From: Microcoleaceae cyanobacterium
GTDB lineage: Bacteria; Cyanobacteriota; Cyanobacteriia; Cyanobacteriales; Microcoleaceae
Direction: 5' to 3'
DNA: 64,000 nucleotides
NCBI GenBank assembly: GCA_051652765.1
Contig: JBOFUV010000071.1
Span: 43,437-107,436 of the forward strand
Part shown: one piece after another, positions 11,507-60,080 of the stretch
Position numbering within the stretch: position 1 is the stretch's first letter
How the letters are laid out: every line of letters begins with the position of its first letter
Made by a program: the position numbers and the translations under genes
Notes under the pieces: model-generated
Database searches by the model: none
What the model saw: only the letters and a program-made list of their open reading frames with translations
Told to the model about the DNA's origin: nothing

Positions 11507-12451
11507 CTACTTTGTCTCTGTCCGACGAAACCAACCATTCAGCGTGAAACGCCCATGTTCAAATTTTTGAGAGGGACAATGAACAGCCATGACCTCGTGT
11601 TTGCAGCGGCTATCAAATAAAACAACACTATTATTTCGCGGTTCAATTGTTTTAAATGGGCCTGCAGCGATCGCACATCCGCCTTTGAATTCCGTCTCAT
11701 AGAGTCTTAACTCGCCACCAGAGAACTTTTTAGGATCTTGATGAAAGTAATACACATAGGTGATAGTTCGGGTTAGGGTTTCAGCACTTCCAGAGTCATT
11801 ATGAATTTTATAGAAACACCCATCATTGTGGGCAGTGAGCTGCATTTCTACTTGAGATACCGTGAATGGGGGATACTCAATTTGTTCTAAAACAGTCGGT
11901 AAAGCCTGCAACAATTTATCCCGCATCAGTTCATAAAACTCAGGGAATAGTGTTGCATAGAGAATTGAAGATTGACGATAGTTATTGGCCTTAGTTGTGG
12001 TGGTAGATGAGACAAACTGATCTGGCTTGTCTAGAGCAATCTTTAAAATTTTCTGATGGTCTTGAGCTGATAGAAAATCACTAATTTGAACAAAGGCTCC
12101 AGGCAAGAAAGCGGATTCAGTCTGAATAACAGTTTGAGTTGAATAAGGAACAGGCTTTAGTTCGGTTTTAACGGGAGGCAATGGCTGAATTGAAGGCTGA
12201 CCTAGAGAATGCGTTAGACTTTGAATTGAACTTTGGATTAAGGGTTGACTGGAGGTTTGACCTAAGGTTTGAACTGGAAGATCCGAAGTTGAATGCTGGG
12301 GAGAAATTCCTGACAGTTCCAACACTTTAAATGCGATCGCGGCTCGATCTTGAGCTGCAATTTCTTGATCCTGCAAAATGGACTCTAATGTCTCAAAAGA
12401 TTGACTCACTAGAGAACCAAATCGCTCCGTTAAACTCAAATGACTTGCCAT
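11507..12451 (-). CDS. 2OG-Fe(II) oxygenase (prolyl-hydroxylase-like), paralog of the neighbour
   Basis: IHND, GGELRLY, KHEV and RFTLNGW. Confidence 0.85.
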   Translation of the reverse strand: MASHLSLTERFGSLVSQSFETLESILQDQEIAAQDRAAIAFKVLELSGISPQHSTSDLPVQTLGQTSSQPLIQSSIQSLTHSLGQPSIQPLPPVKTELKPVPYSTQTVIQTESAFLPGAFVQISDFLSAQDHQKILKIALDKPDQFVSSTTTTKANNYRQSSILYATLFPEFYELMRDKLLQALPTVLEQIEYPPFTVSQVEMQLTAHNDGCFYKIHNDSGSAETLTRTITYVYYFHQDPKKFSGGELRLYETEFKGGCAIAAGPFKTIEPRNNSVVLFDSRCKHEVMAVHCPSQKFEHGRFTLNGWFRRTETK

Positions 12452-12512
12452 ACTACAGCTTGAAGCTTCATCAATTTCTCCTTCTGATTATATCAAGGTA
12501 CGCTGGAGAAGC

Positions 12513-13799: not shown

Positions 13800-13870
13800 G
13801 CTGTTAATGACTAATTAATAACTAATCTAGTTTTCTCTTCATAACATGACAATGTTCATAACTTTGAAGT

Positions 13871-13916
13871 TGTGATTTTTTTATAAGTGATTTTCTTATA
13901 AGTGATTTTCTTATAA
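13871..13916. repeat. 15-bp tandem repeat (GTGATTTTCTTATAA, about 3 copies) upstream of gdhA
   Basis: Read directly from the sequence. Confidence 0.7.
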
Positions 13917-13973
13917 AGTGCACGACATCTCCATTTGCCCCTCTGAGATTGTCTCACAAATCATTACTCTACA

Positions 13974-27402: not shown

Positions 27403-30400
27403 ATGTCTGACTCTGATCTTGATAAGCTTATCCCTCCCGAAATCAAGCACGATGATTTCTACAGAGCAATACAGAAAATTGCTAGAGAAGAAAATATTAA
27501 AACTATTTTAGAGATAGGCTCTTCTTCAGGAGGAGGTAGTACTGAAGCATTTGTATCAGGCTTACGGGAGAACCCAAATAAACCAACTTTATTTTGCATG
27601 GAGGTTTCACAAGCTAGATTTTCAGAGTTGCAAAAAGCTTATGAGCAGGATGAATTTGTCAAGTGTTACAACACTTCATCTGTTTCGATAGAAAAGTTTC
27701 CAAGCAGAGAAGAAGTAACTAAATTTTACCAAACAAAACAGACAGGTCTAAATCATTATCCTCTAGAAACTATTCTGGATTGGTTGAGGCAAGATATTGA
27801 ATATATCAAGGCATCTGAGACTGATACTAATGGTATTTACATAGTCAAGTTAGACAACGATATAGATTTTTTTGACGTAGTTTTAATTGATGGATCAGAA
27901 TTCACAGGGAATGCAGAGATAGAGGAAATTTATGGTGCAAAGTTTATATTGCTAGATGATATCAACACGTTTAAGAACTTTAACAATTATCAAAGACTTT
28001 CTCATGACTCAGGTTATGAGCTACTAGAAGAAAATTTTAATCTTCGGAATGGTTATGCAATTTTCAAGAGGAAGATTTACTCATTTACAACTGAGCAAGC
28101 AGAGCAGATGTTGGTTCGAAGTCTGGTTCGACCCAAAATGACAGTTTTTGATGTTGGTGCGAATATTGGAGACTACACTCGACTCTTCAGCGAACTAGTT
28201 AGCGGAGAAGGCATCGTCTACGCCTTTGAGCCTACATCGAGCACCTTCGAAAAGCTAAGTCGATTAATAGAAATATCTGGGTATAACAACGTAACTCTAA
28301 TTCAGAAAGCAGTTTATTCTCAGGATGGCAGTGTTGAATTCAATGAGTTTTCAGAAGAGTACTCAGTCTGGAATAGTATTGGTCAACCTCAAATGCCTGA
28401 CCCAAATCATGGAGAAAGCTACATTCCATTTGTCAGGACAGAACTTGTCAATGCTATCACTCTCGATTCTTTTTGCAAGGAAAAGAGTATCAAGTCAATT
28501 GATTATCTTAAGCTAGATGTTGAGGGTGTCGAACTAGATGCATTAATGGGTTGTATTCACCTTCTAGATAAAAAATCAATTCGATTTATCCAGTTTGAAA
28601 TCTCCCATAAAATGCTGGAGGGGTTGGGAAGGAAAGCTCGTGAAACTTTTCAAATTCTGGAAGAATATGGTTATGAATGTCATTCTATAGCGCCAAATGG
28701 AGATATTGGAGAGAGAGTAACGGACTCAGATTCCTTCTATGAAAACTACATTGCTTTCCCTGAATTGCCAATTCATTTCTTTACAATTGTTCTCAACGGT
28801 GAACCTTTTATCCAATATCATATCAATGCTTTTAAACAACTTCCTTTTAAGTGGTATTGGCATATCATTGAAGGAGTTGCCGATCTAAAGCATGATACAG
28901 CTTGGAGTACCCAACTTGGGGGTAAAGTGACTGATGAATTTCATCATAACGGTTTAAGCAAGGATAGAACTTCTGAATATTTAGATGAGTTAGTGAAGCA
29001 ATATCCAGATAATGTGACAGTCTATCGTAAGTCAAACGGTGAATTTTGGGATGGAAAGCGAGAGATGGTGAATGCTCCGCTTGAGAATATTCAGGAAGAA
29101 TGCTTGCTGTGGCAAGTTGATGTTGATGAGTTGTGGACTGTCGAGCAGATTTGCAATGCCCGAAACTTATTTATTAAGAATCCAGATAAAACAGCCGCTT
29201 TTTACTGGTGTTGGTATTTCGTTGGTAAGAATTTAGTCATTAGTACTCGAAATTGTTATGCTCAAAATCCTCAACAAGATTGGTTGAGAACCTGGCGATT
29301 TAAACCAGGAGCATTCTGGGCAGCCCATGAACCTCCTGTTTTAGCCGAAAATTTTGCATCGAATCAACAGAGAAATATTGCTGCTGTCAATCCATTTCTT
29401 CATAATGAAACTGAGAAAGAAGGACTAATTTTTCAACACTTTGCCTATGTCACCCCTGAACAATTAGAGTTTAAAGAGCAGTATTATGGCTACAAAAATG
29501 CTGTTCAACAATGGAAAACTTTGCAGTCAGTCTCTCAATTTCCTGTTCCTCTGAGAGATTACTTTGGTTGGGTGGCTGACAATACAATGGTTGACACTGC
29601 TATGGCGTGCGGAGTAAGTCCCATTGCGCGCAAACAAGTAGAACATTGGGAGTTTGTAGAGCCAGTAATTATACAAAAGAAGGAAAGACAATCACCAACA
29701 ATTGTGATAGATGGTGTATTTTTTCAGCTTTATAATACAGGAATTGCACGAGTTTGGAAATCTCTACTTGAAGAGTGGGCAAAAACAGATTTCTCTCAAC
29801 ATATTGTTGTACTAAATCGAGTGGGAACTGCACCAAAGATTCCAGGAATTTGGTATCGAGAAATTCCCGCCTATGATTATTCTCAAACTGATGCAGATCG
29901 AGCTATGTTACAGCAAGTTTGTGATGAAGAAAGGGCTGATATTTTCATCTCAACTTACTACACAACGCCAATTTCTACCCCTTCTGTGTTTATGGCTTAT
30001 GATATGATTCCAGAAGTTTTAGGTGCTGATTTTAATGAACCCATGTGGCGAGAAAAACACTACGGAATTAATCATGCTTCGAGTTACCTAGCGATTTCCC
30101 AGAACACAGCAGATGACTTGGTTAAATCTTTCCCAGAAATCCCTGCTGATCAGGTAACAGTTGCTCATTGCGGCGTTTCCAATCATTTCTTCCCAGCTAA
30201 TCTGCAAGAGATCTACCAATTTAAAAATAAGTACGGGATCACTAAGCCCTATTTTGTTCTGGTTGGAGTTGGCAGTGACTATAAAAATGCAGAACTATTC
30301 TTTCAAGCATTCAGTCAACTACCTAGCCGTCAGGGGTTTGAAATCATTTGCACAGGTAGTGGGTATCTTTTAGCCAGTGAATATCGACAGTTCACCAGCG

Positions 30401-31152
30401 GCACCGTAGTTCATGCCTTGCAGCTCAGTGATGAAGAATTGCGCTGGGCATATGCCGGAGCGATCGCCTTGATTTATCCATCTCGCTACGAAGGGTTTGG
30501 ATTACCGATTGTGGAAGCGATGGCTTGTGGTTGTCCTGTTATCACTTGTCCCAATGCTTCTATTCCAGAAGTAGCTGGTGAAGCCGCAATTTATGTCAAT
30601 GATACAGATATTGCAGGCATGGCAAATGCCCTTTGTGAGGTGCAGAAACCAGGAGTTTATAACTCTCTAGTTTCAGCGGGCTTAGAACAGTCCAAGAAGT
30701 TTTCCTGGACAAAGATGGCAGAAAAAGTTAGCTCAGCCCTGATCAATGCAACGATTTTACACCTGAATCTTAATGAGATTAATTGGATTATTTTTCCAGA
30801 CTGGTCGCAAGATGAGGAAACTCTAGGTCAAGAAATAAAGCAGGTGATTCAGGCGATCGCAACCCACCCAGACAAAAAGAAAATAACATTATTAATCGAC
30901 AACACAGGCATTTCTAATGAAGATGCTGATTTACTGTTATCAAGTATTGTCATGAATCTTTTGATGGAAGAAGAGCTTGATGTTTCTACAGGGCCAGAAA
31001 TTTCACTGATTGGACAGTTGAGTGAGATTCAATGGTCGCTGCTAGTTTCTTATTTAGCAGGTCGAATCGCACTAGATCATGAAAATCCAGTAGCGATCGC
31101 ACAAGCAAACGTAGAGAATCTAGCTAAGATTGGATTAGACAGCTTAAGCTAA
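27403..31152 (+). CDS. Multidomain methyltransferase/FkbM/glycosyltransferase fusion
   Basis: [12 protein letters not shown]; FkbM motifs [23 protein letters not shown]-like VDVDE; GT4 [18 protein letters not shown]. Confidence 0.88.
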
Positions 31153-38878: not shown

Positions 38879-40381
38879 ATGAACTTTTTTGACAAGCTTC
38901 TCACTGCAATTGATCGTTGCCAGAGTTTGCTCTATGTTGCCCTTGATCCCCAGCTAGAAGGGGAGTTCCAGCTCAATCTTGCTCAACAACAGGATTGGAT
39001 TCAGGGTGTCATTCGTCAGACTCAGGGCCAAATTTGTGCCTACAAGCTGAACCTGGGATTTTATCTAGCCTTGGGCACGGAGGGAATTGAACTGTTGCAG
39101 TGGGTGCTCCAGCATCTGCCGCCGGACATTCCCACCATTCTGGATGCCAAGTACAGCGATCTCAATAGCAGTACAGCCTTTGCGCGCCTCATTTTTGAGC
39201 AGTGGCAATTTGATGCTTGCACAGTCATGGCCTATGCCGGACAAGACCAAGTCACGCCTTTTTTGCTCTATCCCGGCAAAGCAGTTTTTGTCTTAGGGAC
39301 GACCGCCAATCCCTCTGCAAAAATGGTGCAGGACTATCCTGATGCTCAACAACCGTTATCTTTGCAGTTGGTCAAAACTGCCCAAACTTGGGGTACACCG
39401 GATCAAGTGGGAGTAGAAGTGGGGATGATGGCGGATAGGTTGGCCAAGGTGAGAAAGGCCGCCCCTGAGCGGTTGATTTTGCTTGAGGGCAATGCTGCTG
39501 CAGAAGATGATTTAACTCAGGACAGTGACTTAACGCAAATTCTAGCTGCTGGGTTAAATGCGAGTGGAGAAGGTTTATTGTTACCAATTCCACCACGATT
39601 TTTAATGAATCAGAACGCTTCTGGAATTATTTCTGAAATAAGTACCCCAAAAACAAGTACCCCAAAAACAAGTACCCCTGAAATAATTCTTCAGGGGATT
39701 AATCATCTGCGGGAAAGGATTAATATTGAACGCCAAAAAGTGCTTGAAAACAGTCCCACCTGTGAACTATGGCTGCCTGATATTTGCTTTTTAGATTCTC
39801 AACCTCACCGGGATTTAATTCTACAACTTTACGATATTGGCTGTATTGTTTTTGGCGAGCATGTGCAATCTTCTGGGGAAGTTTTTCCTTACTATGTTGA
39901 TCTGCGACGAATTATTTCAATCCCTCAAGTCTTTCATCAAATTGTTAGCGCCTATGCTGAAATTTTGCAAGGATTAACGTTTGATCGGATCGCTGGAATT
40001 CCCTATGGTTCCCTCCCCACCGCCACAGGTTTGGCTCTGCGTCTGGAACGTCCGATGATTTTCCCTCGAAAAGAAGTCAAAAGTTATGGCACAGGACGCT
40101 TGGTAGAAGGTCATTTTCAACAGGGAGAAACAATTGTCGTAGTTGACGATATTTTAATTACAGGAAACAGTGTTGTCCAGGGTGCGGAAAAGTTACAATC
40201 AGTCGGATTAAACGTTCAAGATATTGTGGTGTTTATTGATCACGGTCGGAACGTCATAGACAAACTGCAGCAGCAAGGCTATCAAGGTCACGCGGTGTTA
40301 ACCTTGGGTGAAATTGCCGAAACCCTATATCAATCTAACCGGATTACCCAAACGGAATTCGAACTTTTTCAACAGAGTTAG
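38879..40381 (+). CDS. pyrF-pyrE: Bifunctional OMP decarboxylase / orotate phosphoribosyltransferase
   Basis: VALDP, AYK and DAKxxD in the N-terminal half; SSG...YYVDLR, RKEVKSYG and VVVDDILITG in the C-terminal half. Confidence 0.88.
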   Translation: MNFFDKLLTAIDRCQSLLYVALDPQLEGEFQLNLAQQQDWIQGVIRQTQGQICAYKLNLGFYLALGTEGIELLQWVLQHLPPDIPTILDAKYSDLNSSTAFARLIFEQWQFDACTVMAYAGQDQVTPFLLYPGKAVFVLGTTANPSAKMVQDYPDAQQPLSLQLVKTAQTWGTPDQVGVEVGMMADRLAKVRKAAPERLILLEGNAAAEDDLTQDSDLTQILAAGLNASGEGLLLPIPPRFLMNQNASGIISEISTPKTSTPKTSTPEIILQGINHLRERINIERQKVLENSPTCELWLPDICFLDSQPHRDLILQLYDIGCIVFGEHVQSSGEVFPYYVDLRRIISIPQVFHQIVSAYAEILQGLTFDRIAGIPYGSLPTATGLALRLERPMIFPRKEVKSYGTGRLVEGHFQQGETIVVVDDILITGNSVVQGAEKLQSVGLNVQDIVVFIDHGRNVIDKLQQQGYQGHAVLTLGEIAETLYQSNRITQTEFELFQQS

Positions 40382-40575: not shown

Positions 40576-40719
40576 ATTTTGTCAGGACTGGGGGTAAACC
40601 GAGCGTAGAATCTTACAATGAATTTTAGTTATGAATTCCAGTGAAGCGACTTGAGGTGTCATTGAACAGTATTCATTCCAGCCCGACCCTAGTTCATCTG
40701 CTGCGCGATCGCGCCCAAA
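40576..40719 (+). repeat. 144-bp direct repeat, left copy (duplicate of FAAL upstream region and first 26 codons)
   Basis: 143/144 identical to 47754..47897; contains HIP1 at 40705..40712. Confidence 0.97.
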
Positions 40720-41086
40720 TTTTACCTAAAGCAGTGATGCTGCCACCTGTAATAATGAGAACCATACCTCCAAATACTCCAGGAAGTGTAGCCGCTACCG
40801 TTTGAGAGAAAATCTGCTTTTTTGTGCGATTTTGTTCTTTTATCTGCTTCCACCATGCTTCTGACTGGCGCTGGGATTCTTCAAAACTTTGACCAGGATT
40901 TGAGCGAGGCATACTGGGATGATCGCCCGGTTTTATGAGTTCGATAAAGCCTGATCCAAAGGTGAAGAAGCCTGATAGGAAAACAATTACACCTGCTGTC
41001 GAAATCGCCATTCCCAAGTAGATGACAGCTTTTCTGGATGCTGGGATTGGTTGATAGGGAGCGATCGGGTTGGAATGGGTGGGCAT
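40694..41086 (-). CDS. Hypothetical 2-TM membrane protein
   Basis: Two hydrophobic helices flank a polar loop; the last codons and stop lie inside the direct repeat. Confidence 0.7.
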   Translation of the reverse strand: MPTHSNPIAPYQPIPASRKAVIYLGMAISTAGVIVFLSGFFTFGSGFIELIKPGDHPSMPRSNPGQSFEESQRQSEAWWKQIKEQNRTKKQIFSQTVAATLPGVFGGMVLIITGGSITALGKIWARSRSR

Positions 41087-41454: not shown

Positions 41455-42144
41455 CTATCGCACCATTCTATGCTGTCGAACATTGTTCCGCATCCACTGT
41501 CCGACCTGAGCCGAACCTAGGCGATCTTGTTCTTCTGTAATCAGAGGAGTTCTGCGTTCACCTCGTCCTATTTCAGGACGAGGTGGCTCTACTCTAACTG
41601 GATGATCGCCTCCCCAAGGAAACCCGCCCATTCCAGCGTGGGTAGCTCTAAATCGTCTTGTAATCAGCCTGCCTGGTGACTGAATCCTAGTTCCACAGTT
41701 TCCAAAATACCAACGTGACTCAACTGCTGGATCGCGCATAGCGTGGTAAACATTTCTCACATTCCAAGGAATTAATTCAGTTTCAGTACTGATATCTCGA
41801 TCCACCGCATCGAAAAGTGCCATACATTCAATACGCAATTCGCTTGCCCAAGGATGGCGCAACAAACGTTGTGCTACAGCTATACAAGTTGCACCACCAC
41901 GACTATATCCAGCCAATAGAATTGTTGTATCTCGAAACCGTTCAACTTTACTTTGAATATAGTTTTCAACCTCCGCTGCAATATGTGTAACTTGTATTGT
42001 TAAACTCAACTCATCTGGTCCTCGAAAGTATTGCTTATGGGTTTCTGGACATTCGCGAATAAATTGTTGAATAAAACTGTTAGACATATCTCTTCGGTAA
42101 ACATCTGGATCGCCAGAACCACTTCCATCGACACCAATAAACAC
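41455..42144 (-). CDS. Alpha/beta-hydrolase, Tle1/DUF2235-like lipase
   Basis: GGAGG site before a GTG start. GVDGSG, nucleophile elbow GYSRGG, LFDAV, YHAM and THAGMGG. Confidence 0.7.
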   Translation of the reverse strand: MFIGVDGSGSGDPDVYRRDMSNSFIQQFIRECPETHKQYFRGPDELSLTIQVTHIAAEVENYIQSKVERFRDTTILLAGYSRGGATCIAVAQRLLRHPWASELRIECMALFDAVDRDISTETELIPWNVRNVYHAMRDPAVESRWYFGNCGTRIQSPGRLITRRFRATHAGMGGFPWGGDHPVRVEPPRPEIGRGERRTPLITEEQDRLGSAQVGQWMRNNVRQHRMVR

Positions 42145-42193
42145 TTCTTTTTCCTCCTTTGCTTAAAGATGCTTTTCCAAAGAAAGTTTCATT

Positions 42194-43039
42194 CTATAAT
42201 CCTCTGTCATCTATACCTCTACTGATTATTCCTCTGCTATCAAGATCCGGAGTAATGTTTGTCATGCTGGAAGGCAAATCGGATTCAAGTCCCATTTGGA
42301 GGCTTTCTAGATATGAAGGCGGACTGGCAGAGAATCTAGCCCTCCCTCGGACTATTCTTGACGGTTGTAACATTGCCTGTACACCCTGCTGAAACCAAAT
42401 AATCCTTTGTCCATGTCTCTGTCTATATCGCGATCTTCCTCTTCCTCTCCATATCTGTTGGAAAAGATTTAGTGCTTGGTTCAAGTTATAGTGAGAACTG
42501 TTTGAATCTAATGCCTCCCAAAAACTAACTATACCAGGATCGCTTGTCGAGTAAAGTTCTACTCTTGCTGGATTGAACCTGGCATCAATAATTGCCATTT
42601 GAATTAGCTCATCAAGATTAATAGCAAATGGCTTCCTTAAATATAGTTGATTGATGAATTCATTTATCCTGCTTTGTAGTAGTGTAGCAATTGCAGATGA
42701 TGTTATGTAAAGTTGTGCAACTCTACTATAGAATGAAGCAAGTTGATGACTTTCTGAATAGGCGCTCTTGACTCGATACCAATCAGCAATTACATCCTGA
42801 AGCGTAGCTTGGGAAGAGGTTCTTCGGTGATAGAAAACAATTCCAGTTCTTAGTAGTTGAGAGATCATTCCTGCGACTTGTGGTTGACTTAATCCTCCTC
42901 TAGAGTCGATGAGATATCCTACTCCAATAGTTACAAATCCATTTTCATCACAGTAAAAATGGTCAACATCTCCTTCTTTGGATCTGATAAAAGAGATAAG
43001 TTGTGCCATTCTTAGAGAATTGGTTCTTAAATCTCCCAC
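42194..43039 (-). CDS. Phage-type (T4/GH24-like) lysozyme
   Basis: Exact E-x8-D-x5-T triad (KEGDVDHFYCDENGFVTIGVG); AAGGAG site before a GTG start. Confidence 0.72.
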   Translation of the reverse strand: MGDLRTNSLRMAQLISFIRSKEGDVDHFYCDENGFVTIGVGYLIDSRGGLSQPQVAGMISQLLRTGIVFYHRRTSSQATLQDVIADWYRVKSAYSESHQLASFYSRVAQLYITSSAIATLLQSRINEFINQLYLRKPFAINLDELIQMAIIDARFNPARVELYSTSDPGIVSFWEALDSNSSHYNLNQALNLFQQIWRGRGRSRYRQRHGQRIIWFQQGVQAMLQPSRIVRGRARFSASPPSYLESLQMGLESDLPSSMTNITPDLDSRGIISRGIDDRGL

Positions 43040-43060
43040 AACTATAAGTCTCCTTGATAC

Positions 43061-46000
43061 CTAGGTGTCTGATGGAAAGATAGCAGCAGAATTATTTCCT
43101 TGAAATACAACCTTTTTGTCAATCTCAGGATCTTCTCGTTCCCCTTCTAGCAATCGGGCAGCTAAACGTACATTTTCTAGTTCAGCATTGCGGACTTCTG
43201 CCTGAACTTTCTTCACATCCAAAGCACGATGAACCAGTTTGAAATCTTCCAGAATAGGATGTTTACCTGGCAAAGCTTCTATATAAGCTGAGCCTGTCGG
43301 CACAACCACCAGTTCGCTTTCTTTTCTGGGAGTTGTCATGCGTTTTTTGACAAGATTCAACAGATATTCTCGGTGTTCTGCAAAGACTTCAGGAGCATCT
43401 TTTTGTAGGCAACAGGCATACTCTAAAAGCTCCTCAGTGGTGTAGTTGCTAAATTCATCCGGATCGCGCAAACCACCTGTATGTGGATCGATATAATCCT
43501 GCATCATGTAGGTGTGCAGATAGCTTGCCTGACGCACTGGAAAAATCATGTAATTTCCCTTGTAACCCAGCAAATTATCCAGATCAGCTACTTGTGAGAG
43601 TTTTTTGGTGGTTTGCCTGAAGGAAGTAATCGGGATAGAAAGATCAACTTCATAAAGGGGGTTATCTAGGGGGGCAAATCGCAAACTATCGCGATCGCCT
43701 ACTCGCCTGCCAGTTGCTCGCACCCTAGCTGTAGTTTCCTGCAATTCAATCCAGGGAACTTCAATGTTATAGAGTCGGAAAAAGCGTTGATCCGGTGGCT
43801 CATAATCCCAAATCGCTTGCATGTAGTAGAAAAGATTTGCCTTAACATGAATTCGCAGACGAGCAATGGCAGTTTGGCGATCGAAATGCTCTTGTAATGC
43901 TCTCGTATATTTGTCAATAGCTTCTTGCAAAGCAGTTACCTCACGGGAAAGCTTGACACTTACTTCTTGGTTAGCCTTGTCTGCTCGCTCAAGTGCTAAC
44001 TTGGCAATTTCTTCTCGTTTTTCAGCAGCTTCATCATCTCCTCCGCCACCTGCAAGCGAAAATGGTCCAAAAACCATTGCCATACCAATGTCTTTTAATT
44101 TTGCTGCGTCATCAGGTGTACTGATCGTCACATCCATCAATTGCTGAAGTTCCTTAAAGGCTTCGTTAGCAAGATAGTTTTTGGTCTGTACTTGTTTCGT
44201 CAGTTCTTCAACCAAATTTACCTGACGCTTGACGTTATCATGCAAAGTCTGTAATGCCAGTTCATCCCCAGCAATACTGGTTGTTACATAGGATAGGGCT
44301 GGCAAAAAGGAATCATCCAGAATCACTCGGCGTAGAATCCAATCATGGGCAATCAACCAATCCTCATCAATTTCATCATCAATTTCATCTGAATAGGGTA
44401 CATGATTTGCTACGAGAATGACTGGATTCAGACGATGAATTTTTTCACTGATTTCGTACTGACGCTGTAACTCATAAAAAAGATACGTCACTGTAATTTC
44501 ATCGTTCGGGTTCATAATCTCGCCCGAATTTGTAATCTCGATCTCCTCAGTAACAGAAGTGTCAATCTCTAAGCGACGTTGCTGCTTATACTCTTCAGAA
44601 GATTTTAAGACAGCTTCTCGAAAATTCTTTTTAGTACTTGAAGATGTTTTTTCAGATTCAACGCCAAATCGCGTGCCAAATTCTCCTGTAAACACACCAA
44701 CGGTGACTGTTCCACTCGCATTCGCTTCAAAGGAAGTTTTTTCCCTTGCTTGCTTGGCGATTTCACTATCTGCTCGTGAAGTTGAAGAAGATTCTGCACT
44801 GCGGGTGCTTTGAGCATCTTCAATTTCTTTTTGAGAGCGGCTCTTCTTAATGACTTGTTTAGTCGTGTATTTTCGGATTTCTTTGGGAGCAAGGGGAATT
44901 GTAGATACCAACTCGCCAACTTGATAGTTGCCAGGAACCCATTTCTGACGATAGGTGGTCATCAAACCATAGTTCACTGAATTCGGTGCAAAAATGTCAA
45001 ACTGATACGCTTCAGCAAGACGCTGATCCAGTTCGTACATTAACTGCTTTAGTCGAGTGTTTGTTGAAGGACGACGACTGCGTGGGGCTGGTGGAGGTTG
45101 AGTGCTGCGACGTGGACGAGCTTGCGCTGCTCTAAAGATACTTAACGCCTCTGCTTTAAGCCCTTGATAGATTTGCTGGTAATCATTTTTATGACTTACC
45201 CAACTTGGATTCCATTCATTTCGAGCTTCTTGTGGCCAGTTTGGCAAATCGTCATCAAATTCCTGCTTTTTGACTTTGTATATGTTAACTAACCTAGTCA
45301 ATTCAGTTTTCTCGGAATCCTTCATATTTGACCAATCTTCATCAAGAATCTGCCCATCGAGCAACTGCATAACTGGCAGTGGAACCGATTCAGTCACTTC
45401 TGGTGGAGCAAGGTTGACGCTTTCTATGGTTTCCTGTAAAGCCACAAAATCTTCGTACAAACTACGCATATCTCGGACATTCCGAACTGGGGGCAATTCG
45501 TCTATACCCGATACACGATTCTTGTATCTCACCATTTCTGAGTAGATACTGCGGAAGAAAGTCGGCATTGATTTATCAAACGCCTCTGTCCAAACATGCT
45601 CAAAGGCAATTTGCAGCTCATGAAAATCGTGATAAGCCGTGACATCAGCAGGACCTTTCGGAATTCTGGCAACAATTTCACCATCTAATTCGACACCATA
45701 CTTCAGTTCTTGTTCTGGTGGGGTTGTATGCTTCATCTGACGGGTAATTTGTTCTCGCAGAAGGCTGCTTGTTGTCAATTCAGGTGTTTCAGGCGTTTCT
45801 GTCTCAGGCTCAGGTTCCTCACTTTCACCATTGGAATCTGCTCTGCATTTTGCTAAAGCTGCTTCAAATAAACGTTCTGCTTCTTTCGCTTTGAGACAAT
45901 TCTCAATTACGGGTCTGTTATACTCTAGAGTCCCACCCCCTGTAATATCTCGAATATATTCAACAACTTCTGCAAGAGAAACCTCACCACTAACACTTCC

Positions 46001-46822
46001 ATTGTTCGCAATAAGTCCCCACGCCTCAAGTTGCTCTTGAGTAAGATGAAGCACTAGCTTCCGTTTAGCTCCGAGGTCAAAACTTGGTAAGTCGATCAAG
46101 CCATTGTCAAATAGGTTGATTAATTTATCAAAAATCTTTTCTCCAGGGTTGAGATATGTAGCACTGGCTCTAACCTCTGGAGATACTTTGGAGAGGGTAA
46201 AGTTTTGAAATGCCTCGTCTGCTTTCTTTTTGGCAGCAATTGCAGGCTTTAGCCGCTCTTGTAACTGTTTTCTTAGAGTAGCCTGAACGCCTTGTTCAAA
46301 TTTGAAGGAAGCGTCCAGATTAGCGGTTACAGATTCAACTGTCGTAGTCGTTGCTTCAGTTGGTAGATTACGATAGGAAATTTGAAAGCGATTCAGCAAC
46401 TCTTGAGGAATACGAATGATGTATTCCTCATTCTTCCCAGAGTTGACAACGGGATCATAAGAGTAGTGAAGAATGCGCTCTGCAGAAGGTTCGGGGATGT
46501 TAAACGGCTTTTTGGGTTGTGTATCTTCTGGAGCCATCACAAGCAGCACCAAATCTGGGCGTTTGATTAACTCTCTCTGCTCAAAATCACTGTCCTCAAA
46601 CGCCAGTTCAAATCTTCCGTTTACATCCGTCAGTACTGAGCCAAGACGTTCTCCTGGAAAAGTTTGCCAATAAAACGGTAATGCCTGGTCGGGCACACTG
46701 AAAATTTCTGGTGGTGGTTCCTGTGAACCCTTATGGTTATCCTGATCGTAAAGAACGATTAACAAGTCAGGAATTCCTAATCCAGTTTCCTTAACCAAAA
46801 CCTTGCCACTGACTTTATACAT
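43061..46822 (-). CDS. Large (1253 aa) hypothetical protein, putative toxin/pore-forming structural component
   Basis: N-terminal transthyretin/carboxypeptidase-regulatory-like segment (VSGKV...LGSVLTDVNGRFEL), a Ser/Thr-rich amphipathic beta segment, and coiled coils. Function is an inference. Confidence 0.8.
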   Translation of the reverse strand: MYKVSGKVLVKETGLGIPDLLIVLYDQDNHKGSQEPPPEIFSVPDQALPFYWQTFPGERLGSVLTDVNGRFELAFEDSDFEQRELIKRPDLVLLVMAPEDTQPKKPFNIPEPSAERILHYSYDPVVNSGKNEEYIIRIPQELLNRFQISYRNLPTEATTTTVESVTANLDASFKFEQGVQATLRKQLQERLKPAIAAKKKADEAFQNFTLSKVSPEVRASATYLNPGEKIFDKLINLFDNGLIDLPSFDLGAKRKLVLHLTQEQLEAWGLIANNGSVSGEVSLAEVVEYIRDITGGGTLEYNRPVIENCLKAKEAERLFEAALAKCRADSNGESEEPEPETETPETPELTTSSLLREQITRQMKHTTPPEQELKYGVELDGEIVARIPKGPADVTAYHDFHELQIAFEHVWTEAFDKSMPTFFRSIYSEMVRYKNRVSGIDELPPVRNVRDMRSLYEDFVALQETIESVNLAPPEVTESVPLPVMQLLDGQILDEDWSNMKDSEKTELTRLVNIYKVKKQEFDDDLPNWPQEARNEWNPSWVSHKNDYQQIYQGLKAEALSIFRAAQARPRRSTQPPPAPRSRRPSTNTRLKQLMYELDQRLAEAYQFDIFAPNSVNYGLMTTYRQKWVPGNYQVGELVSTIPLAPKEIRKYTTKQVIKKSRSQKEIEDAQSTRSAESSSTSRADSEIAKQAREKTSFEANASGTVTVGVFTGEFGTRFGVESEKTSSSTKKNFREAVLKSSEEYKQQRRLEIDTSVTEEIEITNSGEIMNPNDEITVTYLFYELQRQYEISEKIHRLNPVILVANHVPYSDEIDDEIDEDWLIAHDWILRRVILDDSFLPALSYVTTSIAGDELALQTLHDNVKRQVNLVEELTKQVQTKNYLANEAFKELQQLMDVTISTPDDAAKLKDIGMAMVFGPFSLAGGGGDDEAAEKREEIAKLALERADKANQEVSVKLSREVTALQEAIDKYTRALQEHFDRQTAIARLRIHVKANLFYYMQAIWDYEPPDQRFFRLYNIEVPWIELQETTARVRATGRRVGDRDSLRFAPLDNPLYEVDLSIPITSFRQTTKKLSQVADLDNLLGYKGNYMIFPVRQASYLHTYMMQDYIDPHTGGLRDPDEFSNYTTEELLEYACCLQKDAPEVFAEHREYLLNLVKKRMTTPRKESELVVVPTGSAYIEALPGKHPILEDFKLVHRALDVKKVQAEVRNAELENVRLAARLLEGEREDPEIDKKVVFQGNNSAAIFPSDT

Positions 46823-47008: not shown

Positions 47009-47082
47009 TATTTATTATATTGAAACTTTCTAACATCGACTTATTCAAAGGATTACCTCGAAATTTTCTGTATAAACCCCAA

Positions 47083-47184
47083 ATGGAACAACGCCCAAAA
47101 AAGCTGCTAGATCAGGTGCTCGACGTGATTCAACTCAAGCACTTAAGCCATCGCACCGAAAAAAGCTATCTTTATTCCATTTGA
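47083..47184 (+). pseudogene. intI: Truncated integron integrase N-terminus
   Basis: Manual translation MEQRPKKLLDQVLDVIQLKHLSHRTEKSYLYSI* matches the IntI N-terminal pattern LLDQVR..IR.KHYS.RTE..Y..WI. Confidence 0.8.
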
Positions 47185-47753: not shown

Positions 47754-47897
47754 ATTTTGTCAGGACTGGGGGTAAACCGAGCGTAGAATCTTACAATGAA
47801 TTTTAGTTATGAATTCCAGTGAAGCGACTTGAGGTGTCATTGAACAGTATTCATTCCAGCCCGACCTTAGTTCATCTGCTGCGCGATCGCGCCCAAA
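47754..47897 (+). repeat. 144-bp direct repeat, right copy (native FAAL 5' region)
   Basis: 143/144 identical to 40576..40719. Confidence 0.97.
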
Positions 47898-49672
47898 CCT
47901 TGCCAGATCAGCAGGCTTATACCTTCCTTCCAGATGGCGAGACAGAATCTGGGAATTTAACCTATGGCCAGCTTGACCAACAGGCCAGACAACTTGCTGC
48001 CTATCTCCAGTCTCTCCATGCTTTCGGTGTCCGCGCCTTAGTCGTTTATCCCTACACCGCCGGGTTAGAATTCATCGCCACTTTTTTTGGCTGTCTCTAC
48101 GCCGGAGTGATTGCCGTAACCTGCAACCCCCCCCACTCTAGCCAGGAAATCGACAAAATTCTAGATCGACTTGCATCTTCCCAAGCCACCGTTGCCCTCA
48201 CCAATCAGGCCCTACTGACCCAACTCCAGGGATTGATGGCCAAGCGTCCTGAATTAGCCAACTCTTTTAGTCGCGTTTCCTGGATTGCGACCGATACCCT
48301 GTTATCACCTTCGGCAGAAAGTGGGTCTGAACATTGGGCTGAAAACTGGGCTGAACCGAACGTAACCCCAGATACTCTGGCCTTTCTACAGTACACCTCC
48401 GGTTCCACAGGCACTCCCAAGGGGGTAAAGGTCACCCATAAAAACGTGTTACACAACTCTGCCTTGATTTACCAGTGTTTTGGCCACAGTGCCCATAGTC
48501 AAGGGGTAATGTGGCTGCCTTTGTTTCACGACATGGGATTAATTGGCGGGGTGATTCAACCCTTGTATGGCGGATTTCCCGTCACCTTAATGTCTCCTGT
48601 GGCCTTGATTCAAAAACCCTTCCGCTGGTTGCAAGCGGTTTCCAAGTACCGGGCCACTACTAGCGGTGGCCCCAACTTTGCCTATGATTTGGCCTGTCGG
48701 CAGGTGACTCTAGAACAATTGCACACCCTGGACTTGAAGACTTGGGATTTGGCCTTCTCTGGGGCTGAACCTGTACGGGCCGAAACCTTGGAACGATTTA
48801 CCCAAACCTTTGCCCCCTGCGGATTTCGGTCTGAAGCGTTCTATCCCTGCTATGGTATGGCAGAAGCAACCCTGTTCATATCCGGGGGAATCAAAGCAGA
48901 ACAACCCGTGGTGCAGGTTGTTGATGGTGGGATGTTGGAACAGAATCAGGGGGTTGAAGTTGCCCCAGATCATCCGCAGGCGCGGCAGTTAGTTGGATGT
49001 GGCCAAGGATGGTTGGGCGATGAGATGGTCATCGTCAACCCAGACGTTAACCTAGGGGGGTTCATCCCCTGTGCCGAAAATCAAGTGGGAGAAATCTGGT
49101 TTAGGGGTTCCGGTGTGGGTCAGGGCTATTGGAACCAACCGGAAGAAACGGAACAGATGTTTCAAGCTTATCTGGGCGAGCGGGGGCCGTTCCTACGAAC
49201 GGGGGATTTGGGATTCCTGCGAAATGGAGAACTCTTCATCACGGGCCGCATCAAGGACATGATGATTCTTTGGGGTCGCAATCGCTATCCTCAGGACATT
49301 GAAAAAACTGTGGAACACTGTCATCCTGCCTTGCGTTCGGGCTGTGGCGCGGCTTTCTCAATTGAAGCCGAGGGAGAGGAACGGTTGGTGATTGCCTATG
49401 AGGTAGAACGGCAAATGCTGAAACGGTTGAACGTTCCTGAATGTGTTGCGGAGGTTGTAGCCACAATTCGCCAAGCTGTTGCCGAACAACATACAGTAGA
49501 TGTTTATGCGATCGCCCTGTTAAAAACGGGCACGATTCCCAAAACCTCCAGTGGCAAAATTCAACGCCGTGCCTGTCGCGCTCAGTTCTTGCAGCAGGCG
49601 TTAAACCTTGTGGCTCAATGGCAACTTTCAGAGGAATCTAGTAGTCTAGTGGAGTTGGCCAATCAGGTTTAA
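47819..49672 (+). CDS. Fatty acyl-AMP ligase (FAAL)
   Basis: LAFLQYTSGSTGTPKGV, WLPLFHDMGLIG, PCYGMAEATL, LRTGDLG and PKTSSGKIQR. Confidence 0.93.
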   Translation: MKRLEVSLNSIHSSPTLVHLLRDRAQTLPDQQAYTFLPDGETESGNLTYGQLDQQARQLAAYLQSLHAFGVRALVVYPYTAGLEFIATFFGCLYAGVIAVTCNPPHSSQEIDKILDRLASSQATVALTNQALLTQLQGLMAKRPELANSFSRVSWIATDTLLSPSAESGSEHWAENWAEPNVTPDTLAFLQYTSGSTGTPKGVKVTHKNVLHNSALIYQCFGHSAHSQGVMWLPLFHDMGLIGGVIQPLYGGFPVTLMSPVALIQKPFRWLQAVSKYRATTSGGPNFAYDLACRQVTLEQLHTLDLKTWDLAFSGAEPVRAETLERFTQTFAPCGFRSEAFYPCYGMAEATLFISGGIKAEQPVVQVVDGGMLEQNQGVEVAPDHPQARQLVGCGQGWLGDEMVIVNPDVNLGGFIPCAENQVGEIWFRGSGVGQGYWNQPEETEQMFQAYLGERGPFLRTGDLGFLRNGELFITGRIKDMMILWGRNRYPQDIEKTVEHCHPALRSGCGAAFSIEAEGEERLVIAYEVERQMLKRLNVPECVAEVVATIRQAVAEQHTVDVYAIALLKTGTIPKTSSGKIQRRACRAQFLQQALNLVAQWQLSEESSSLVELANQV

Positions 49673-58793: not shown

Positions 58794-60080
58794 CTATGGC
58801 TTAGGCTGAATCCAAACTTTCATCCCCTCAACTCGCAACGCTTGGCCTCGAGTCCCGCAGTATTGACCCTGGGTACAGACTGGAACATCCCCTTTATTCT
58901 GAACATGGGCCGTGTAAAAAACGTCATAGTTTGTGGCTTGAGGGCCAGTCAATTCAATCGCAAACCCTTCAATTTGCCGTCCTTTACCCCGTTCACCGAC
59001 TAACTGCCCTGCGGGAGTCATGGGAGTATCTCCGACACCGGAAATATGGGCTTGGTATTGTAAGTTCAACCCTGAAATCGGGGGAAACAGACTAATCTGA
59101 AAAGCCTCAACTCGCCGACCTTGACCTCGGGTTCCAGCATATTCCTGGGCTCCAAACTCCCGATCCCCTAGACCTTGTAAATGCACAAGTACTTTGAGTC
59201 CCACGGCAGAAAGACTTCCAGACCTAGGTGCATTGCCTTGAAGCGCAAGATTCCCAAATACAATATTTCTGTTGTCTAGTTTGTTGTCTAGTTTGTTGTC
59301 CAGTGTTGGGGGAGTTTTAAGCAATTCTATACTGGGGACAATAATCACGTCTTGAGGAGCAGCCGCCGTGGGCTCCTCAAGAATCACAATATCTGAGGAA
59401 ACGACGGTCTGTCGAACTGGAGTTGGAGCAGTGAGGGTGACTAACGGTTGCGGGTCAACCTTAGGGCGAACGGCAAGGGCAGGAGCAACCTTGCCGCGCG
59501 AGACGGCGATCGCCAAAGGCTTACCAAAATCTGCTTCTATTTTTTCTTCTAGCATGAGCCACTGGGCATCATCCAAATTGTCCTGATAATGCACTAAAGT
59601 CACTAAAGCTGACAGAGGATGGTTTCCCTTGACAAGAGCTTCTGCTTCTAGGGGCAGGGCTAGGGGTGAAGTCTGGGTGATGGTCACCTGGAGTTCCCGA
59701 GCCTTGGCTTTGGCTATCTCTAAAGCGGGGAGTTCTTTCTGCTCACGATGCTCTAAGGTCAACACTTGCTCTAAAATACTCAGGGCATTCTGATAGGTCG
59801 CTTGCTCCTGTTGAGGTTTCACCTGATCCTGTACTTTTTTCTCCAGATCTTTCAGTGACAGTTCCTCAACACTCCCGGATGGATCATCAGCCACAACCTG
59901 TTGTTGAAGCTGACTAAAATCTCGATTGTATTTGACAAGCTCCCCTAGCATTTTTTCTGATAGAGGTTTGCCCGTCTTCTGCAACTGTTGTGCTGCTTGA
60001 GCAAGGCGATCGCCCAGACTAAAATGACGTGTTGACAGTGCAGTAAGTTGTTGTAGCAAGTTCTGGTGAGCAGGCTCCAC
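58794..60080 (-). CDS. Helical protein with three C-terminal ChW-like repeats
   Basis: Three repeats of H(L/I/V)xxxGD...G(T/E)RG...(V/I)E(A/G)xxI/V; GGAGG site before a GTG start. Confidence 0.75.
   Translation of the reverse strand: MEPAHQNLLQQLTALSTRHFSLGDRLAQAAQQLQKTGKPLSEKMLGELVKYNRDFSQLQQQVVADDPSGSVEELSLKDLEKKVQDQVKPQQEQATYQNALSILEQVLTLEHREQKELPALEIAKAKARELQVTITQTSPLALPLEAEALVKGNHPLSALVTLVHYQDNLDDAQWLMLEEKIEADFGKPLAIAVSRGKVAPALAVRPKVDPQPLVTLTAPTPVRQTVVSSDIVILEEPTAAAPQDVIIVPSIELLKTPPTLDNKLDNKLDNRNIVFGNLALQGNAPRSGSLSAVGLKVLVHLQGLGDREFGAQEYAGTRGQGRRVEAFQISLFPPISGLNLQYQAHISGVGDTPMTPAGQLVGERGKGRQIEGFAIELTGPQATNYDVFYTAHVQNKGDVPVCTQGQYCGTRGQALRVEGMKVWIQPKP

Follow-up and report, generated by a model that had tools for sequence, protein, structure and literature searches.

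A giant conserved protein with ever-changing tagged partners in a cyanobacterial island operon points to an undescribed toxin-handling system

Among the closest described counterparts of the operon analyzed here are polymorphic toxin systems, which, in the available text of Zhang et al. 2012 (PMC3482391) and a survey of the PT-TG domain (PMC13483458), consist of hypervariable, mosaic toxins with swapped C-terminal parts, carry PT-TG, Ntox5, and protease domains, and have a patchy, island-borne distribution. The same text describes PT-TG and Ntox5 for secreted polymorphic and PVC-delivered toxins, Ntox5 being listed as a PVC-linked toxin domain (PMC3482391). Streptomyces umbrella toxin particles, according to the accessible part of PMC13274773, are multiprotein secreted polymorphic-toxin particles that were found via conserved neighbors of variable toxins. 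In the hypervariable Ig-protein module of Thermococcales, the genes downstream of a large protein form unique combinations, and the module is interpreted, in the accessible part of PMC8416519, as an archaeal conflict or self/non-self system. Encapsulin shells pair a conserved large-assembly gene with diverse enzymes bearing a short cargo peptide at either terminus, while Tc (ABC) and binary AB toxins combine a conserved translocation component with an exchangeable enzymatic one. Among the effectors of T6SSs, muramidases and Tle1-like lipases are classical types. Here, we compare with these systems a three-gene operon of a Microcoleaceae cyanobacterium, located in a window of 64,000 nucleotides (the whole stretch of DNA that was analyzed). 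Its giant protein and the ever-changing tagged partners of that protein's relatives point to an undescribed toxin-handling system.

The three genes, taken from the ORF list, lie on the minus strand. The first, at 43061..46822 (ATG start), encodes P0001, the 1253-residue invariant component of the module; the second, at 42194..43039 (GTG start), encodes P0002, a 281-residue T4-lysozyme-like protein that is the tagged partner; and the third, at 41455..42144 (GTG start), encodes P0003, a 229-residue Tle1/DUF2235-like alpha/beta-hydrolase that lacks the tag. An earlier note, made from the sequence of the window, had described three co-oriented, tightly spaced genes, and this layout was confirmed: the genes are separated by 21 and 49 bp, with AAGGAG ∼8 nt 5′ of the P0002 GTG and AAGGAGG ∼9 nt 5′ of the P0003 GTG as ribosome-binding sites. 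We place the start of P0001 at the ATG at 46822 because homologue alignments begin at residue 1. The gene caller's form of this protein (P0004) is shorter and begins at residue 20. The operon genes are taken to be real because P0001 has at least 1100 homologues and P0003 has 761 cluster representatives (E ≤ 0.001). None of the three proteins contains a 19-residue window with a Kyte–Doolittle value of 1.4 or above and, therefore, none has a signal- or transmembrane-like segment; the absence of an obvious signal peptide, also stated in the note, thus holds for all three.

The operon was horizontally acquired and arrived as a 7.2-kb island, which holds its three genes and an ORF with two predicted transmembrane segments and is flanked by 144-bp direct repeats that differ at one position. 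Copy 1 (40576..40719, plus strand) is a duplicated 5′ end of an acyl-CoA synthetase gene, comprising the upstream region and the first ∼26 codons, and copy 2 (47754..47897, plus strand) lies at the true start of that gene (47819..49672). A 54-codon integrase remnant (47020..47184, plus strand) resembles the N terminus of a tyrosine integrase, with a match to Phage_int_SAM_4 (E = 8.5e-4) of 20.1 bits against a cut-off of 27. None of the four island genes was found in the 40 relatives searched, two of them from the same genus. The distribution is patchy and island-borne.

Both enzymes that the note had recognized stand, in divergent form. P0002, described there as a lysozyme with an E-x8-D-x5-T triad, is a divergent T4-lysozyme-like protein: its E22-x8-D31-x5-T37 motif (42929..42976, minus strand), within "EG..HFYCD.NG.VTIGVG", aligns in register with T4 lysozyme residues 5 to 71, and the triad is kept in all four homologues that cover the N terminus. 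The family profile retrieved T4 lysozymes only among the 60 PDB matches listed (best E = 0.003), and two of five family members matched PF00959 weakly. P0003, noted for its GYSRG sequence, is a divergent Tle1/DUF2235-like Ser-Asp-His hydrolase, with S81, D112, and H169 invariant in its family. In its nucleophile elbow, G79-Y-S81-R-G83 (41896..41910, minus strand), residues G79, S81, R82, and G83 do not vary across 42 family members. Weak matches within this family are to Thioesterase (21/42), Tle1-like_cat (11/42), Lipase_3 (7/42), and PF09994, and we take the motifs GxSRG and "DG(T/S)G" to resemble those of DUF2235. The two enzymes share with the T6SS effectors Tle1 (DUF2235) and muramidases the same pair of targets, membrane lipid and peptidoglycan. 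This likeness, the Tle1-like catalytic matches, and the PVC link of Ntox5 listed in the available text of PMC3482391 would suit effectors whose T6SS or extracellular contractile injection system is encoded at another place in the genome. However, the lack of T6SS and eCIS genes that the earlier note recorded for the window extends to the whole genome (99.97% complete), where searches for the contractile sheath (Phage_sheath_1), VipB/TssC, and Phage_GPD/VgrG gave no match while control genomes did. We consider such effectors highly improbable. P0003 also differs from Tle1 in having just 229 residues, and it falls below the Pfam cut-off.

P0001, which the note could not assign, gave nothing at E ≤ 1 in Pfam, NCBIfam, PADLOC, or PHROGs and no meaningful match to PDB sequences. 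Its family comprises at least 1100 proteins from many bacterial phyla and several archaea, every one named "hypothetical." Among its genomic relatives, 164 were confirmed and 80 loci were kept. Of the 77 loci that leave room downstream, 65 have a gene in the same orientation within 200 bp 3′ of the P0001 homologue; the gap does not exceed 100 bp in 58 loci, and the median is 21 bp, identical to that in the window. Grouping of the 67 partners gave 43 unlinked groups, of which 33 have a single member, and two loci whose large proteins are 75% and 70% identical to P0001 (L001 and L002) continue with unrelated genes. The partners are mosaics, with N-terminal parts in common and C-terminal parts swapped. 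PT-TG domains occur in the partners at L034, L052, and L056 and in partners on a haloarchaeal plasmid (RefSeq name "pre-toxin TG domain-containing protein") and a Sinorhizobium megaplasmid; other partners contain Ntox5 (L018), Peptidase_C70 (L030), or Peptidase_M10 (L053). Hypervariable and mosaic, some with such domains, the partners look, by sequence, like polymorphic toxins. On our best reading, the operon is one local form of a module that is widespread but unnamed and has two parts, a conserved large protein and an exchangeable downstream slot. The earlier note had proposed surveying homologous neighborhoods for recurrent, variable downstream hydrolases. A recurrent variable gene was indeed found, but lytic enzymes are not the recurring link: the lysozyme recurs in 1 of the 80 P0001-family loci and the P0003 family in none, and a P0001-family gene is present in 0 of 79 lipase-family loci. 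That the lipase family is unlinked in 79/79 loci, that the integrase is a mere remnant, and that the N-terminal domain of P0001 resembles pilin, adhesin, and carboxypeptidase sandwiches would fit ordinary adjacency, with P0001 as a structural protein of the surface, S-layer, or adhesin-like kind and the hydrolases as unrelated passengers of a decaying island. P0001, however, lacks both signal peptide and anchor, a variable gene recurs close by in the same orientation, and passengers would not be expected to carry a common tag, so that we regard this explanation as quite improbable.

In this tag, the pentapeptide x-R-G-[T/I/L]-x occurs two or three times in tandem at a terminus of otherwise unrelated partners. 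An xRG[TIL] pair within 25 residues was found in the first 80 residues of 14 of 67 partners versus 5 of the 896 remaining ORFs in these loci; in 500 shuffles that preserved composition, the mean was 0.17 and the highest count 2. The strict tag, with five-residue spacing, is present in 11/67 partners versus 1/896 other ORFs, the sole exception being a lysozyme homologue two genes 3′ of the large gene at L008. Tagged partners are spread over 11 of the 43 unrelated groups. All six Arg, all four Gly, and all four Thr codons are used and, therefore, selection acts on the peptide rather than on the DNA. In P0002, the last 14 residues (SRGIISRGIDDRGL; 42197..42238, minus strand) form three tandem pentapeptides, SRGI(I) SRGI(D) DRGL, which constitute the only strict tandem match in the genome's 6487 frames of at least 100 residues, bar one that is unrelated and lies in a hydrophobic stretch. 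The lysozyme-family tag is C-terminal in P0002 and N-terminal in the L008 homologue, indicating that it is a movable module. A tag common to unrelated partners is a new observation. Cargo peptides of encapsulins have a different consensus from xRG[T/I/L]x. P0001 is also unlike an encapsulin in size and architecture, and the cargo would be toxin-like rather than metabolic enzymes; the fold searches with P0001, whose matches were generic, contained no HK97-fold match.

To describe P0001, we combined homologue alignments with structure models. The modeled build is an N-terminal transthyretin/CarboxypepD_reg-like beta-sandwich (residues 1 to 140; 46403..46822, minus strand), a helical middle, and a C-terminal core of ∼670 residues with very long beta-strands and a helical hairpin (residues 586 to 1253; 43064..45067, minus strand; pLDDT 79, pTM 0.63). 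Conservation is highest in this core, which elsewhere also occurs as a stand-alone gene product of about 655 to 688 residues; split forms are seen too. Within it, a Ser/Thr-flanked loop of low pLDDT (residues 696 to 722; 44657..44737, minus strand) is strongly beta-amphipathic despite varying sequence; across 30 homologues, its 180-degree hydrophobic moment has a median percentile of 98.5 within the protein. A hydrophobic, Gly-rich tip (IGMAMVFGPFSLAGGGG; 44018..44110, minus strand) caps a long hairpin of helices 850 to 899 and 931 to 995; in most of the 30 homologues, no other 13-mer of the protein exceeds it in hydrophobicity (median percentile 99.6; exceptions 5/30). Both segments look membrane-active in the predicted structure. 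With the missing signal peptide, they would be compatible with P0001 being itself the toxin, a big pore-former freed by a holin/endolysin-type cassette of lysozyme, lipase, and the two-transmembrane ORF, as in lysis-dependent toxin release. Residues 586 to 850 have aerolysin/ETX_MTX2 as their nearest named cluster in language-model features (0.79, below the tool's level for more than a lead), and the muramidase neighbors that small ORF (130 residues; 40694..41086, minus strand), which has a basic C terminus. Yet profile comparison of P0001 with ETX_MTX2 gave a probability near 0, in relatives, PT-TG, Ntox5, and protease proteins rather than lysis enzymes occupy the slot, the lysozyme recurs in just 1 of 80 loci and bears the same tag as the toxin-like partners, and the small ORF lies 368 bp from the operon, has its last 26 bp inside the repeat, and is without a homologue in 159 fetched loci. 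We judge this explanation improbable; the ORF may encode an immunity protein or a holin-like one, or may be a junction ORF. The self-assembling carrier or pore, and the complex with the enzymes, that the note had envisaged were not supported; fold searches gave generic coiled-coil and transthyretin-like matches only.

The best reading, to which we assign a probability of about 0.5, is that the conserved P0001 carries or translocates effectors that are tagged and swappable. In nearly every lineage, the slot directly 3′ of the large protein has another toxin-like occupant, and the pentapeptide tag that many of these partners carry would be the address that marks them. P0001 would recognize the tag and carry, release, or translocate its bearer, its two membrane-active-looking loops engaging the membrane; export and the target are likewise supposed. 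In the window's genome, the slot is filled by the T4-lysozyme-like muramidase with its C-terminal tag, followed by the untagged Tle1-like hydrolase, and the payload would therefore act on the cell wall and on membrane lipids. The note's idea of a carrier with cargo fits in part, in the variable slot, toxin hallmarks, and common tag; the untagged P0003 is only a possible cargo. By comparison with the polymorphic toxin systems of PMC3482391 and PMC13483458, the toxin here is a separate protein with no known trafficking domain (WXG/LXG, PAAR, VgrG, RHS, TPS) or signal peptide, lies nearly always 3′ of a conserved ∼1200-residue unannotated protein, often has an xRG[T/I]x tandem tag, and adjoins no recognized immunity family in the homologous loci. 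Unlike the umbrella particles of PMC13274773, as far as its accessible part describes them, there are no ALF repeats or lectin partners, and here the large coiled-coil protein is separate from the toxin. The Thermococcales module differs in the Ig domains of its large protein, its narrow taxonomic range, and an abstract that names no tag (PMC8416519).

The absence of signal peptides and immunity families, the patchy island-borne distribution, and the TIR, MmeI restriction-modification, KAP NTPase, AAA_15, or toxin-antitoxin genes that adjoin some homologous loci are also what an intracellular conflict module would show. P0001 would then sense a trigger (e.g., phage) and perforate the producer's cytoplasmic membrane from inside, a holin-like action that the membrane-active-looking loops would suit, upon which the tagged lysozyme and the lipase would gain access to wall and membranes and kill the cell by abortive infection or programmed lysis, the slot supplying alternative suicide effectors. 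We find this unlikely, since no PADLOC model matches any operon protein, P0001 has no NTPase or known sensor domain in Pfam and NCBIfam searches, its family is present in no phage record, its transthyretin-like N-terminal sandwich is, among fold matches, typical of surface or extracellular proteins, and PT-TG and Ntox5 are known, in the available text of PMC3482391 and PMC13483458, from secreted polymorphic and PVC-delivered toxins. In comparison with Tc toxins, the long helical hairpin of P0001 with its hydrophobic tip recalls the TcA channel, and a neighboring gene at L070 encodes a TcA_TcB_BD domain.

The window carries three genes in tight succession on its minus strand, encoding a 1253-aa large protein (P0001, 43061..46822), a 281-aa T4-lysozyme-like protein (P0002, 42194..43039) and a 229-aa alpha/beta-hydrolase (P0003, 41455..42144). 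The earlier note had described this arrangement, and its coordinates, its intergenic gaps of 21 and 49 bp and its ribosome-binding sites were all recovered, the last as a Shine-Dalgarno-like AAGGAG(G) 8-9 nt 5′ of the P0002 and P0003 start codons. Alignments with the homologs of P0001 begin at the first residue of the long ORF, and its start was therefore placed at the ATG at 46822. The same note's remark that none of the three has an obvious signal peptide also holds, as P0001, P0002 and P0003 show no hydrophobic N-terminal or transmembrane (TM)-like segment. The operon is surrounded by cyanobacterial housekeeping genes, among them a pyrF/pyrE-type fusion (38879..40381) and an acyl-CoA synthetase gene (47819..49672). 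A search of sequencing runs for operon expression returned no RNA run and only two metagenome DNA runs, with 7-8% of words each.

P0001 gave nothing at E≤1 against Pfam, NCBIfam, PADLOC or PHROGs, and nothing meaningful against PDB sequences, either as a single sequence or as a 30-sequence profile. It nevertheless belongs to a large family: at least 1100 of 8000 candidates scored are homologs at E≤0.001, and all 120 of those listed are named "hypothetical protein" at source. In a pattern scan that took one genome from each species, 164 relatives were confirmed, and 80 loci (L-numbers below) were kept. The loci represent Cyanobacteria, Bacteroidota, Actinomycetota, Acidobacteriota, Chloroflexota, Myxococcota, Pseudomonadota, Gemmatimonadota, Verrucomicrobiota, Nitrospirota and others, and five are archaeal (Methanophagaceae, two Methanococcoides, Nitrososphaera and Methanomicrobiales). 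The family is also found on four large plasmids, one of them haloarchaeal; it is absent from phage records, and none of 31 pattern matches in viral contigs was confirmed. The big gene is single-copy in this genome. A 1249-aa ORF of similar size in the window (27403..31152, plus strand), considered as a paralog, was rejected as an unrelated FkbM-methyltransferase/GT4 glycosyltransferase fusion; the next gene after it is Uma2 endonuclease-like.

Conservation spans the whole of P0001 and is strongest in a core at residues 586-1253. Elsewhere, for example in actinomycetes, the core is a gene of its own, encoding ∼655-688 aa and following a gene for the N-terminal half. Many such stand-alone cores (655-688 aa) are present in the protein database, and the two halves of the large protein are therefore separable modules. 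In six loci from actinomycetes and others (L032-L035, L038 and L077; ∼8001-11700) the big gene is split into two adjacent ORFs, one of ∼550 aa and the other of ∼665 aa, that lie 1 bp apart. A further subfamily (L023, L043 and L050) lacks residues 1-386 of the window's form, and upstream of it lies a small gene (178-225 aa, one cluster) that overlaps the start of the big gene by 4 bp and may encode an extra component.

What follows the big gene is close by and highly variable. An ORF rule located the big gene in 78 loci, and in 77 of them the downstream sequence extends for 400 bp or more. A co-oriented gene, hereafter the partner, starts no more than 200 bp away in 65 of these 77 (no more than 100 bp in 58; median gap, 21 bp); in six the next gene is on the opposite strand, and in six it is far off or missing. 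On its upstream side the big gene is usually set off by a break. The 67 first partners, that of the window included, fall into 43 groups without detectable similarity, 33 of them singletons, and the closest P0001 relatives, at 75% and 70% identity, have unrelated genes downstream. The earlier note had proposed a survey for recurrent, variable downstream hydrolases; what recurs is the variable close gene, and P0003 is found in 0 of the 80 loci. At equal core identity, pairs of big proteins that share a partner have N-terminal identity equal to or somewhat above that of other pairs (6 of 11 at least 1.5 sd higher, the pairs not being independent). Where partners are related they are mosaics, with common N-terminal parts and differing C-terminal parts, the latter recurring on other scaffolds. 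Specifically, the partners of L051, L063, L071 and L072 have ∼730 N-terminal residues in common and diverge beyond, and that of L004 has parts in common with those of L001, L005, L006 and L072. The mosaicism typical of polymorphic toxins is thus seen among partners of homologous loci; P0002 itself has only four relatives.

We scanned 63 partners against Pfam, omitting those of L010, L016 and L042 (near-identical to L009, L015 and L039) and of L058, where the "partner" is a piece of the big gene; for L036, L043 and L048 the next ORF was used, the first being a fragment or shorter than 100 aa, and for L008 both downstream genes were entered. Matches were found in 12 of the 63, leaving 51 without a domain. 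They include PT-TG (L034, L052 and L056), Ntox5 (L018), Peptidase_C70 (L030), Peptidase_M10 (L053), DUF4347 (L023), DUF6973 (L038), PKD (L066) and, just under the cut-off, Extensin-like_C (L021 and L025); an NCBIfam scan added nothing useful. PT-TG was also found in partners on the haloarchaeal plasmid, where RefSeq names the protein "pre-toxin TG domain-containing protein," and on a Sinorhizobium megaplasmid, making five PT-TG loci in all. PT-TG and Ntox5 are described as domains of secreted polymorphic or PVC-delivered toxins (PMC3482391; PMC13483458). The partners thus resemble polymorphic toxin systems in their toxin and pre-toxin domains and in their C-terminal swapping, but differ from them in lacking a known trafficking domain: no known N-terminal trafficking domain or signal was found in any of the 63, and in 14 of the 67 partners that position is taken by a short peptide tag, xRG[T/I]x.

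A small co-oriented ORF follows the partner in 13 of 65 loci. Among 131 proteins scanned just beyond the module of big gene and partner, we found transposases or integrases in six loci, toxin-antitoxin toxins in three, and MmeI, TIR, KAP and AAA_15 in one locus each; none of the 131 matched an immunity family. The main rival to a delivery role, an intracellular suicide or defense module, draws support from these missing immunity genes, from some of the defense-like neighbors and from the missing signal peptides, whereas the types of toxin domain, the large protein's N-terminal domain, which is of extracellular type, and the lack of PADLOC matches all count against it. In Parafilimonas, two genes beyond the module, L070 encodes a 1113-aa protein with a TcA C-terminal TcB-binding domain (10942-14283, minus strand; E 3e-58).

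The tag was first seen as "RGT/RGI" repeats on reading the N-termini of the partners, and consists of tandem pentapeptides. Two xRG[T/I/L] units within 25 aa in the first 80 residues are present in 14 of 67 partners and in 5 of 896 other ORFs of the same loci (shuffle control: mean 0.17, maximum 2 in 500), and one or more units within those 80 residues in 29 of 67 and 74 of 896, respectively. With spacing of exactly five residues the counts are 11/67 and 1/896, the lone "other" ORF being a P0002 homolog two genes after the big gene in L008; with a relaxed pattern, which adds L002, L003, L030 and L052, they are 13/67 and 2/896. Counting either pattern, a tandem tag is present in 19 of the 67 partners. 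Tagged partners are spread over 11 of the 43 unrelated groups and include Peptidase_C70, PT-TG and PKD proteins. The full set of codons occurs for Arg (six), Gly (four) and Thr (four); therefore, it is the peptide that is conserved and not a DNA motif. ORF starts were taken as the longest frame, so that some N-terminal tags could sit upstream of the true start, but the codon usage argues that they are translated. Tagged partners also adjoin big proteins lacking the first 160 or 337 residues (L009, L020, L039 and L042); if the big protein reads the tag, its reader would thus lie beyond residue 338. The tag seems to occur in dialects. The PT-TG partners of two Ensifer/Sinorhizobium loci (L052:11612-13306 and L178:8072-9766) begin with a variant, DRMC...DRMC, at 10-aa spacing, and the variants in L002 and L003 read ERAT/ERST plus DRLG/DRLS.

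In the window the tagged partner is P0002, which terminates in SRGI-I-SRGI-D-DRGL, a run of three units spaced exactly five residues apart. The genome's 6487 frames of at least 100 aa contain just one other strict match, within a hydrophobic segment of a 768-aa frame that is unrelated. In the L008 homolog the tag is at the N-terminus (NRGIANRGIANRGK), and the tag therefore behaves as a movable module. P0002 is rare: three relatives besides its own entry were found among 5.8 billion proteins, plus that of L008, and none of 202 pattern matches in metagenome contigs was confirmed. The E-x8-D-x5-T triad that the earlier note gave for its lysozyme is indeed present, as E22, D31 and T37; the E, D and T of "EG..HFYxD.NG.VTIGVG" are kept in all four homologs that cover the N-terminus, and the alignment is in register with residues 5-71 of T4 lysozyme, which has E11/D20/T26. 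The lysozyme label itself stands only in part. P0002 had no Pfam match at E≤1 and no PHROG lysis match, and of the five family members two gave a match to PF00959, a weak one in each case (best E 0.0069). A five-sequence profile matched 508 distinct PDB sequences at E≤10 (best E 0.0031, profile residues 14-97 only), and the 60 matches listed were all T4 lysozyme, endolysin or gp5. Because the PF00959 curated threshold was not reached, we call P0002 T4-lysozyme-like and not a family member; from its sequence it is predicted to be a divergent protein of this kind. That the lysozyme is a mere release factor for a large toxin would fit this one locus, but such a role does not suit the family and leaves the tag unexplained.

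P0003 was placed in the operon from its spacing and ribosome-binding site. Its family comprises 761 cluster representatives, mostly stand-alone proteins of 220-300 aa. The earlier note's "GYSRG alpha/beta-hydrolase" is borne out as to fold class, with a GxSxG elbow (G79-Y-S81-R-G83) and a Ser-Asp-His triad; G79, S81, R82, G83, D112 and H169 are invariant among 42 aligned relatives. An assignment to Tle1/DUF2235 did not hold to the same extent, as P0003 falls below the curated threshold of PF09994. Its best Pfam match is Lipase_3 (E 0.0021; 18.4 bits against a cut-off of 22), and weak matches among the 42 were to Thioesterase (21), Tle1-like_cat (PF09994; 11) and Lipase_3 (7). P0003 is a small Ser-Asp-His alpha/beta-hydrolase, closest in flavor to the Tle1/DUF2235 lipases. 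An association with a T6SS was not found either: contractile sheath, TssC and VgrG/gpD families all went unmatched in the genome, which extends genome-wide the earlier observation that T6SS and eCIS structural genes are lacking from the window. P0003 carries no tag, the big gene is found in 0 of 79 P0003-family metagenome loci, and P0003 is not a regular member of the module. In three of these metagenome loci (L088, L090 and L107) a gene of ∼115 aa overlaps the end of the hydrolase gene by 4 bp; it may encode a cognate immunity or partner protein, which is missing in the window.

Two models of the large protein were made, one of them of the core (residues 586-1253; pLDDT 79, pTM 0.63). The core model contains strands of 28-29 residues, a helical hairpin of 50 + 65 residues and two low-confidence loops. 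The hairpin tip, IGMAMVFGPFSLAGGGG, is the most hydrophobic stretch in most of 30 homologs (median percentile 99.6; five exceptions), and for a Ser/Thr-flanked loop at 696-722 the beta-type hydrophobic moment is high (median percentile 98.5), both percentiles being inflated by taking a regional maximum over homologs that are not independent. Both features are kept despite sequence drift. Foldseek searches with the core (PDB, VIA-wide and BFVD) matched only long-coiled-coil proteins (Rad50/SMC, dynein stalk, FliJ, IpaB, TcA helices and EmrA) and barely probed the beta-rich parts; the best viral match was an uncharacterized Yasminevirus protein (E 8.5e-8), and among the matches listed, filled as they are by coiled coil, there was no HK97 fold. 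The long strands, together with an atlas lead of 0.79, had prompted the idea of an aerolysin/ETX_MTX2 protein. The model has candidates for aerolysin-type traits in the 28-29-residue strands and a low-confidence amphipathic loop, and no fold match was found; P0001 has no Pfam match to ETX_MTX2, and hhalign comparison of its family profile with four cyanobacterial ETX_MTX2 proteins, a thin template drawn from 4 of 301 cyanobacterial genomes, showed no similarity (probability 0.05-0.08%). Neither were the TcA domains and TcB-binding domain of a Tc toxin A component found in the large protein.

Taken together, the family combines a conserved large protein, a hypervariable, polymorphic-toxin-like slot and a movable tag on unrelated occupants. 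The simplest reading is that the large protein is a carrier or translocator that would recognize the tag and handle whichever effector adjoins it, the cargo in the window being a wall-degrading enzyme (P0002) and perhaps a lipase (P0003). Exit from the cell, a target, oligomerization or pore formation by the large protein and its binding of the tag are what we infer. In its fullest form, which we regard as possible at a probability of roughly 0.3, the large protein would found an undescribed, envelope-independent toxin-handling machine of bacteria and archaea, one that reads the tag (x-R-G-T/I-x, in two or three copies on otherwise unrelated effectors), assembles, and buries its hydrophobic hairpin tip and amphipathic loop in a membrane so that the effectors can cross. 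In logic only, the tagging may be likened to that of an encapsulin-type compartment, with its short N- or C-terminal targeting peptide on diverse adjoining cargo.

The kind of system, a polymorphic toxin with a dedicated partner, is known. Within the literature searched, the large-protein partner, its split architecture and the tag are new; the open-access papers searched contained no description of the large-protein family or the tag. For many polymorphic toxins no route of export or delivery is known. A large fraction of PT-TG proteins have no other recognizable domain (PMC13483458). A conserved partner, ranging here over cyanobacteria, actinomycetes, myxobacteria, Bacteroidota and methanogenic, halophilic and ammonia-oxidizing archaea, would give a subset of PT-TG and polymorphic toxins a testable route, and a short tag common to unrelated proteins strengthens that case. 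Fusion of the tag to a reporter, its deletion and its use in pull-downs are all feasible, so that the hypothesis is open to direct test. Were the tag sufficient for loading, it could be used as a protein-delivery tool, and hidden effectors could be found across genomes by motif; if the toxin-handling machine is real, it would be a new class of delivery system with cargo reprogrammable by a 10-15-residue tag.

The operon lies in an island. Two direct repeats of 144 bp with one mismatch (40576-40719 and 47754-47897), each comprising the start of the acyl-CoA synthetase gene (its first ∼26 codons) together with the region upstream, bracket 7.2 kb that contain the three genes, a 130-aa ORF and ∼930 bp of noncoding DNA. 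The repeat has the appearance of a scar from an insertion that re-created the start of the synthetase gene. The 130-aa ORF (40694-41086, minus strand) encodes two TM segments and a basic C-terminus. Its product could act in immunity or be holin-like, or the ORF could simply have arisen at the junction. A small multi-TM protein encoded with a muramidase would suit a holin-endolysin cassette; this ORF shares the island with P0002 but lies 368 bp past the third gene, P0003, and ends within the repeat. Searches of 40 relatives, two of them congeneric genomes, recovered none of the four island genes; in both congeneric genomes the two genes flanking the island are on different contigs. The noncoding stretch, upstream of the big gene, contains a 54-codon remnant resembling a tyrosine-integrase N-terminus (47020-47184, plus strand; Phage_int_SAM_4, E 8.5e-4, below cut-off), a 63-nt imperfect inverted repeat (47286-47348/47546-47608) and a 31-nt tandem pair (47400-47430/47444-47474). 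Elsewhere in the window, a 428-aa protein (58794-60080, minus strand) carries at its C-terminus three repeats of the ChW (clostridial hydrophobic W) type, a domain known mainly from Firmicutes.
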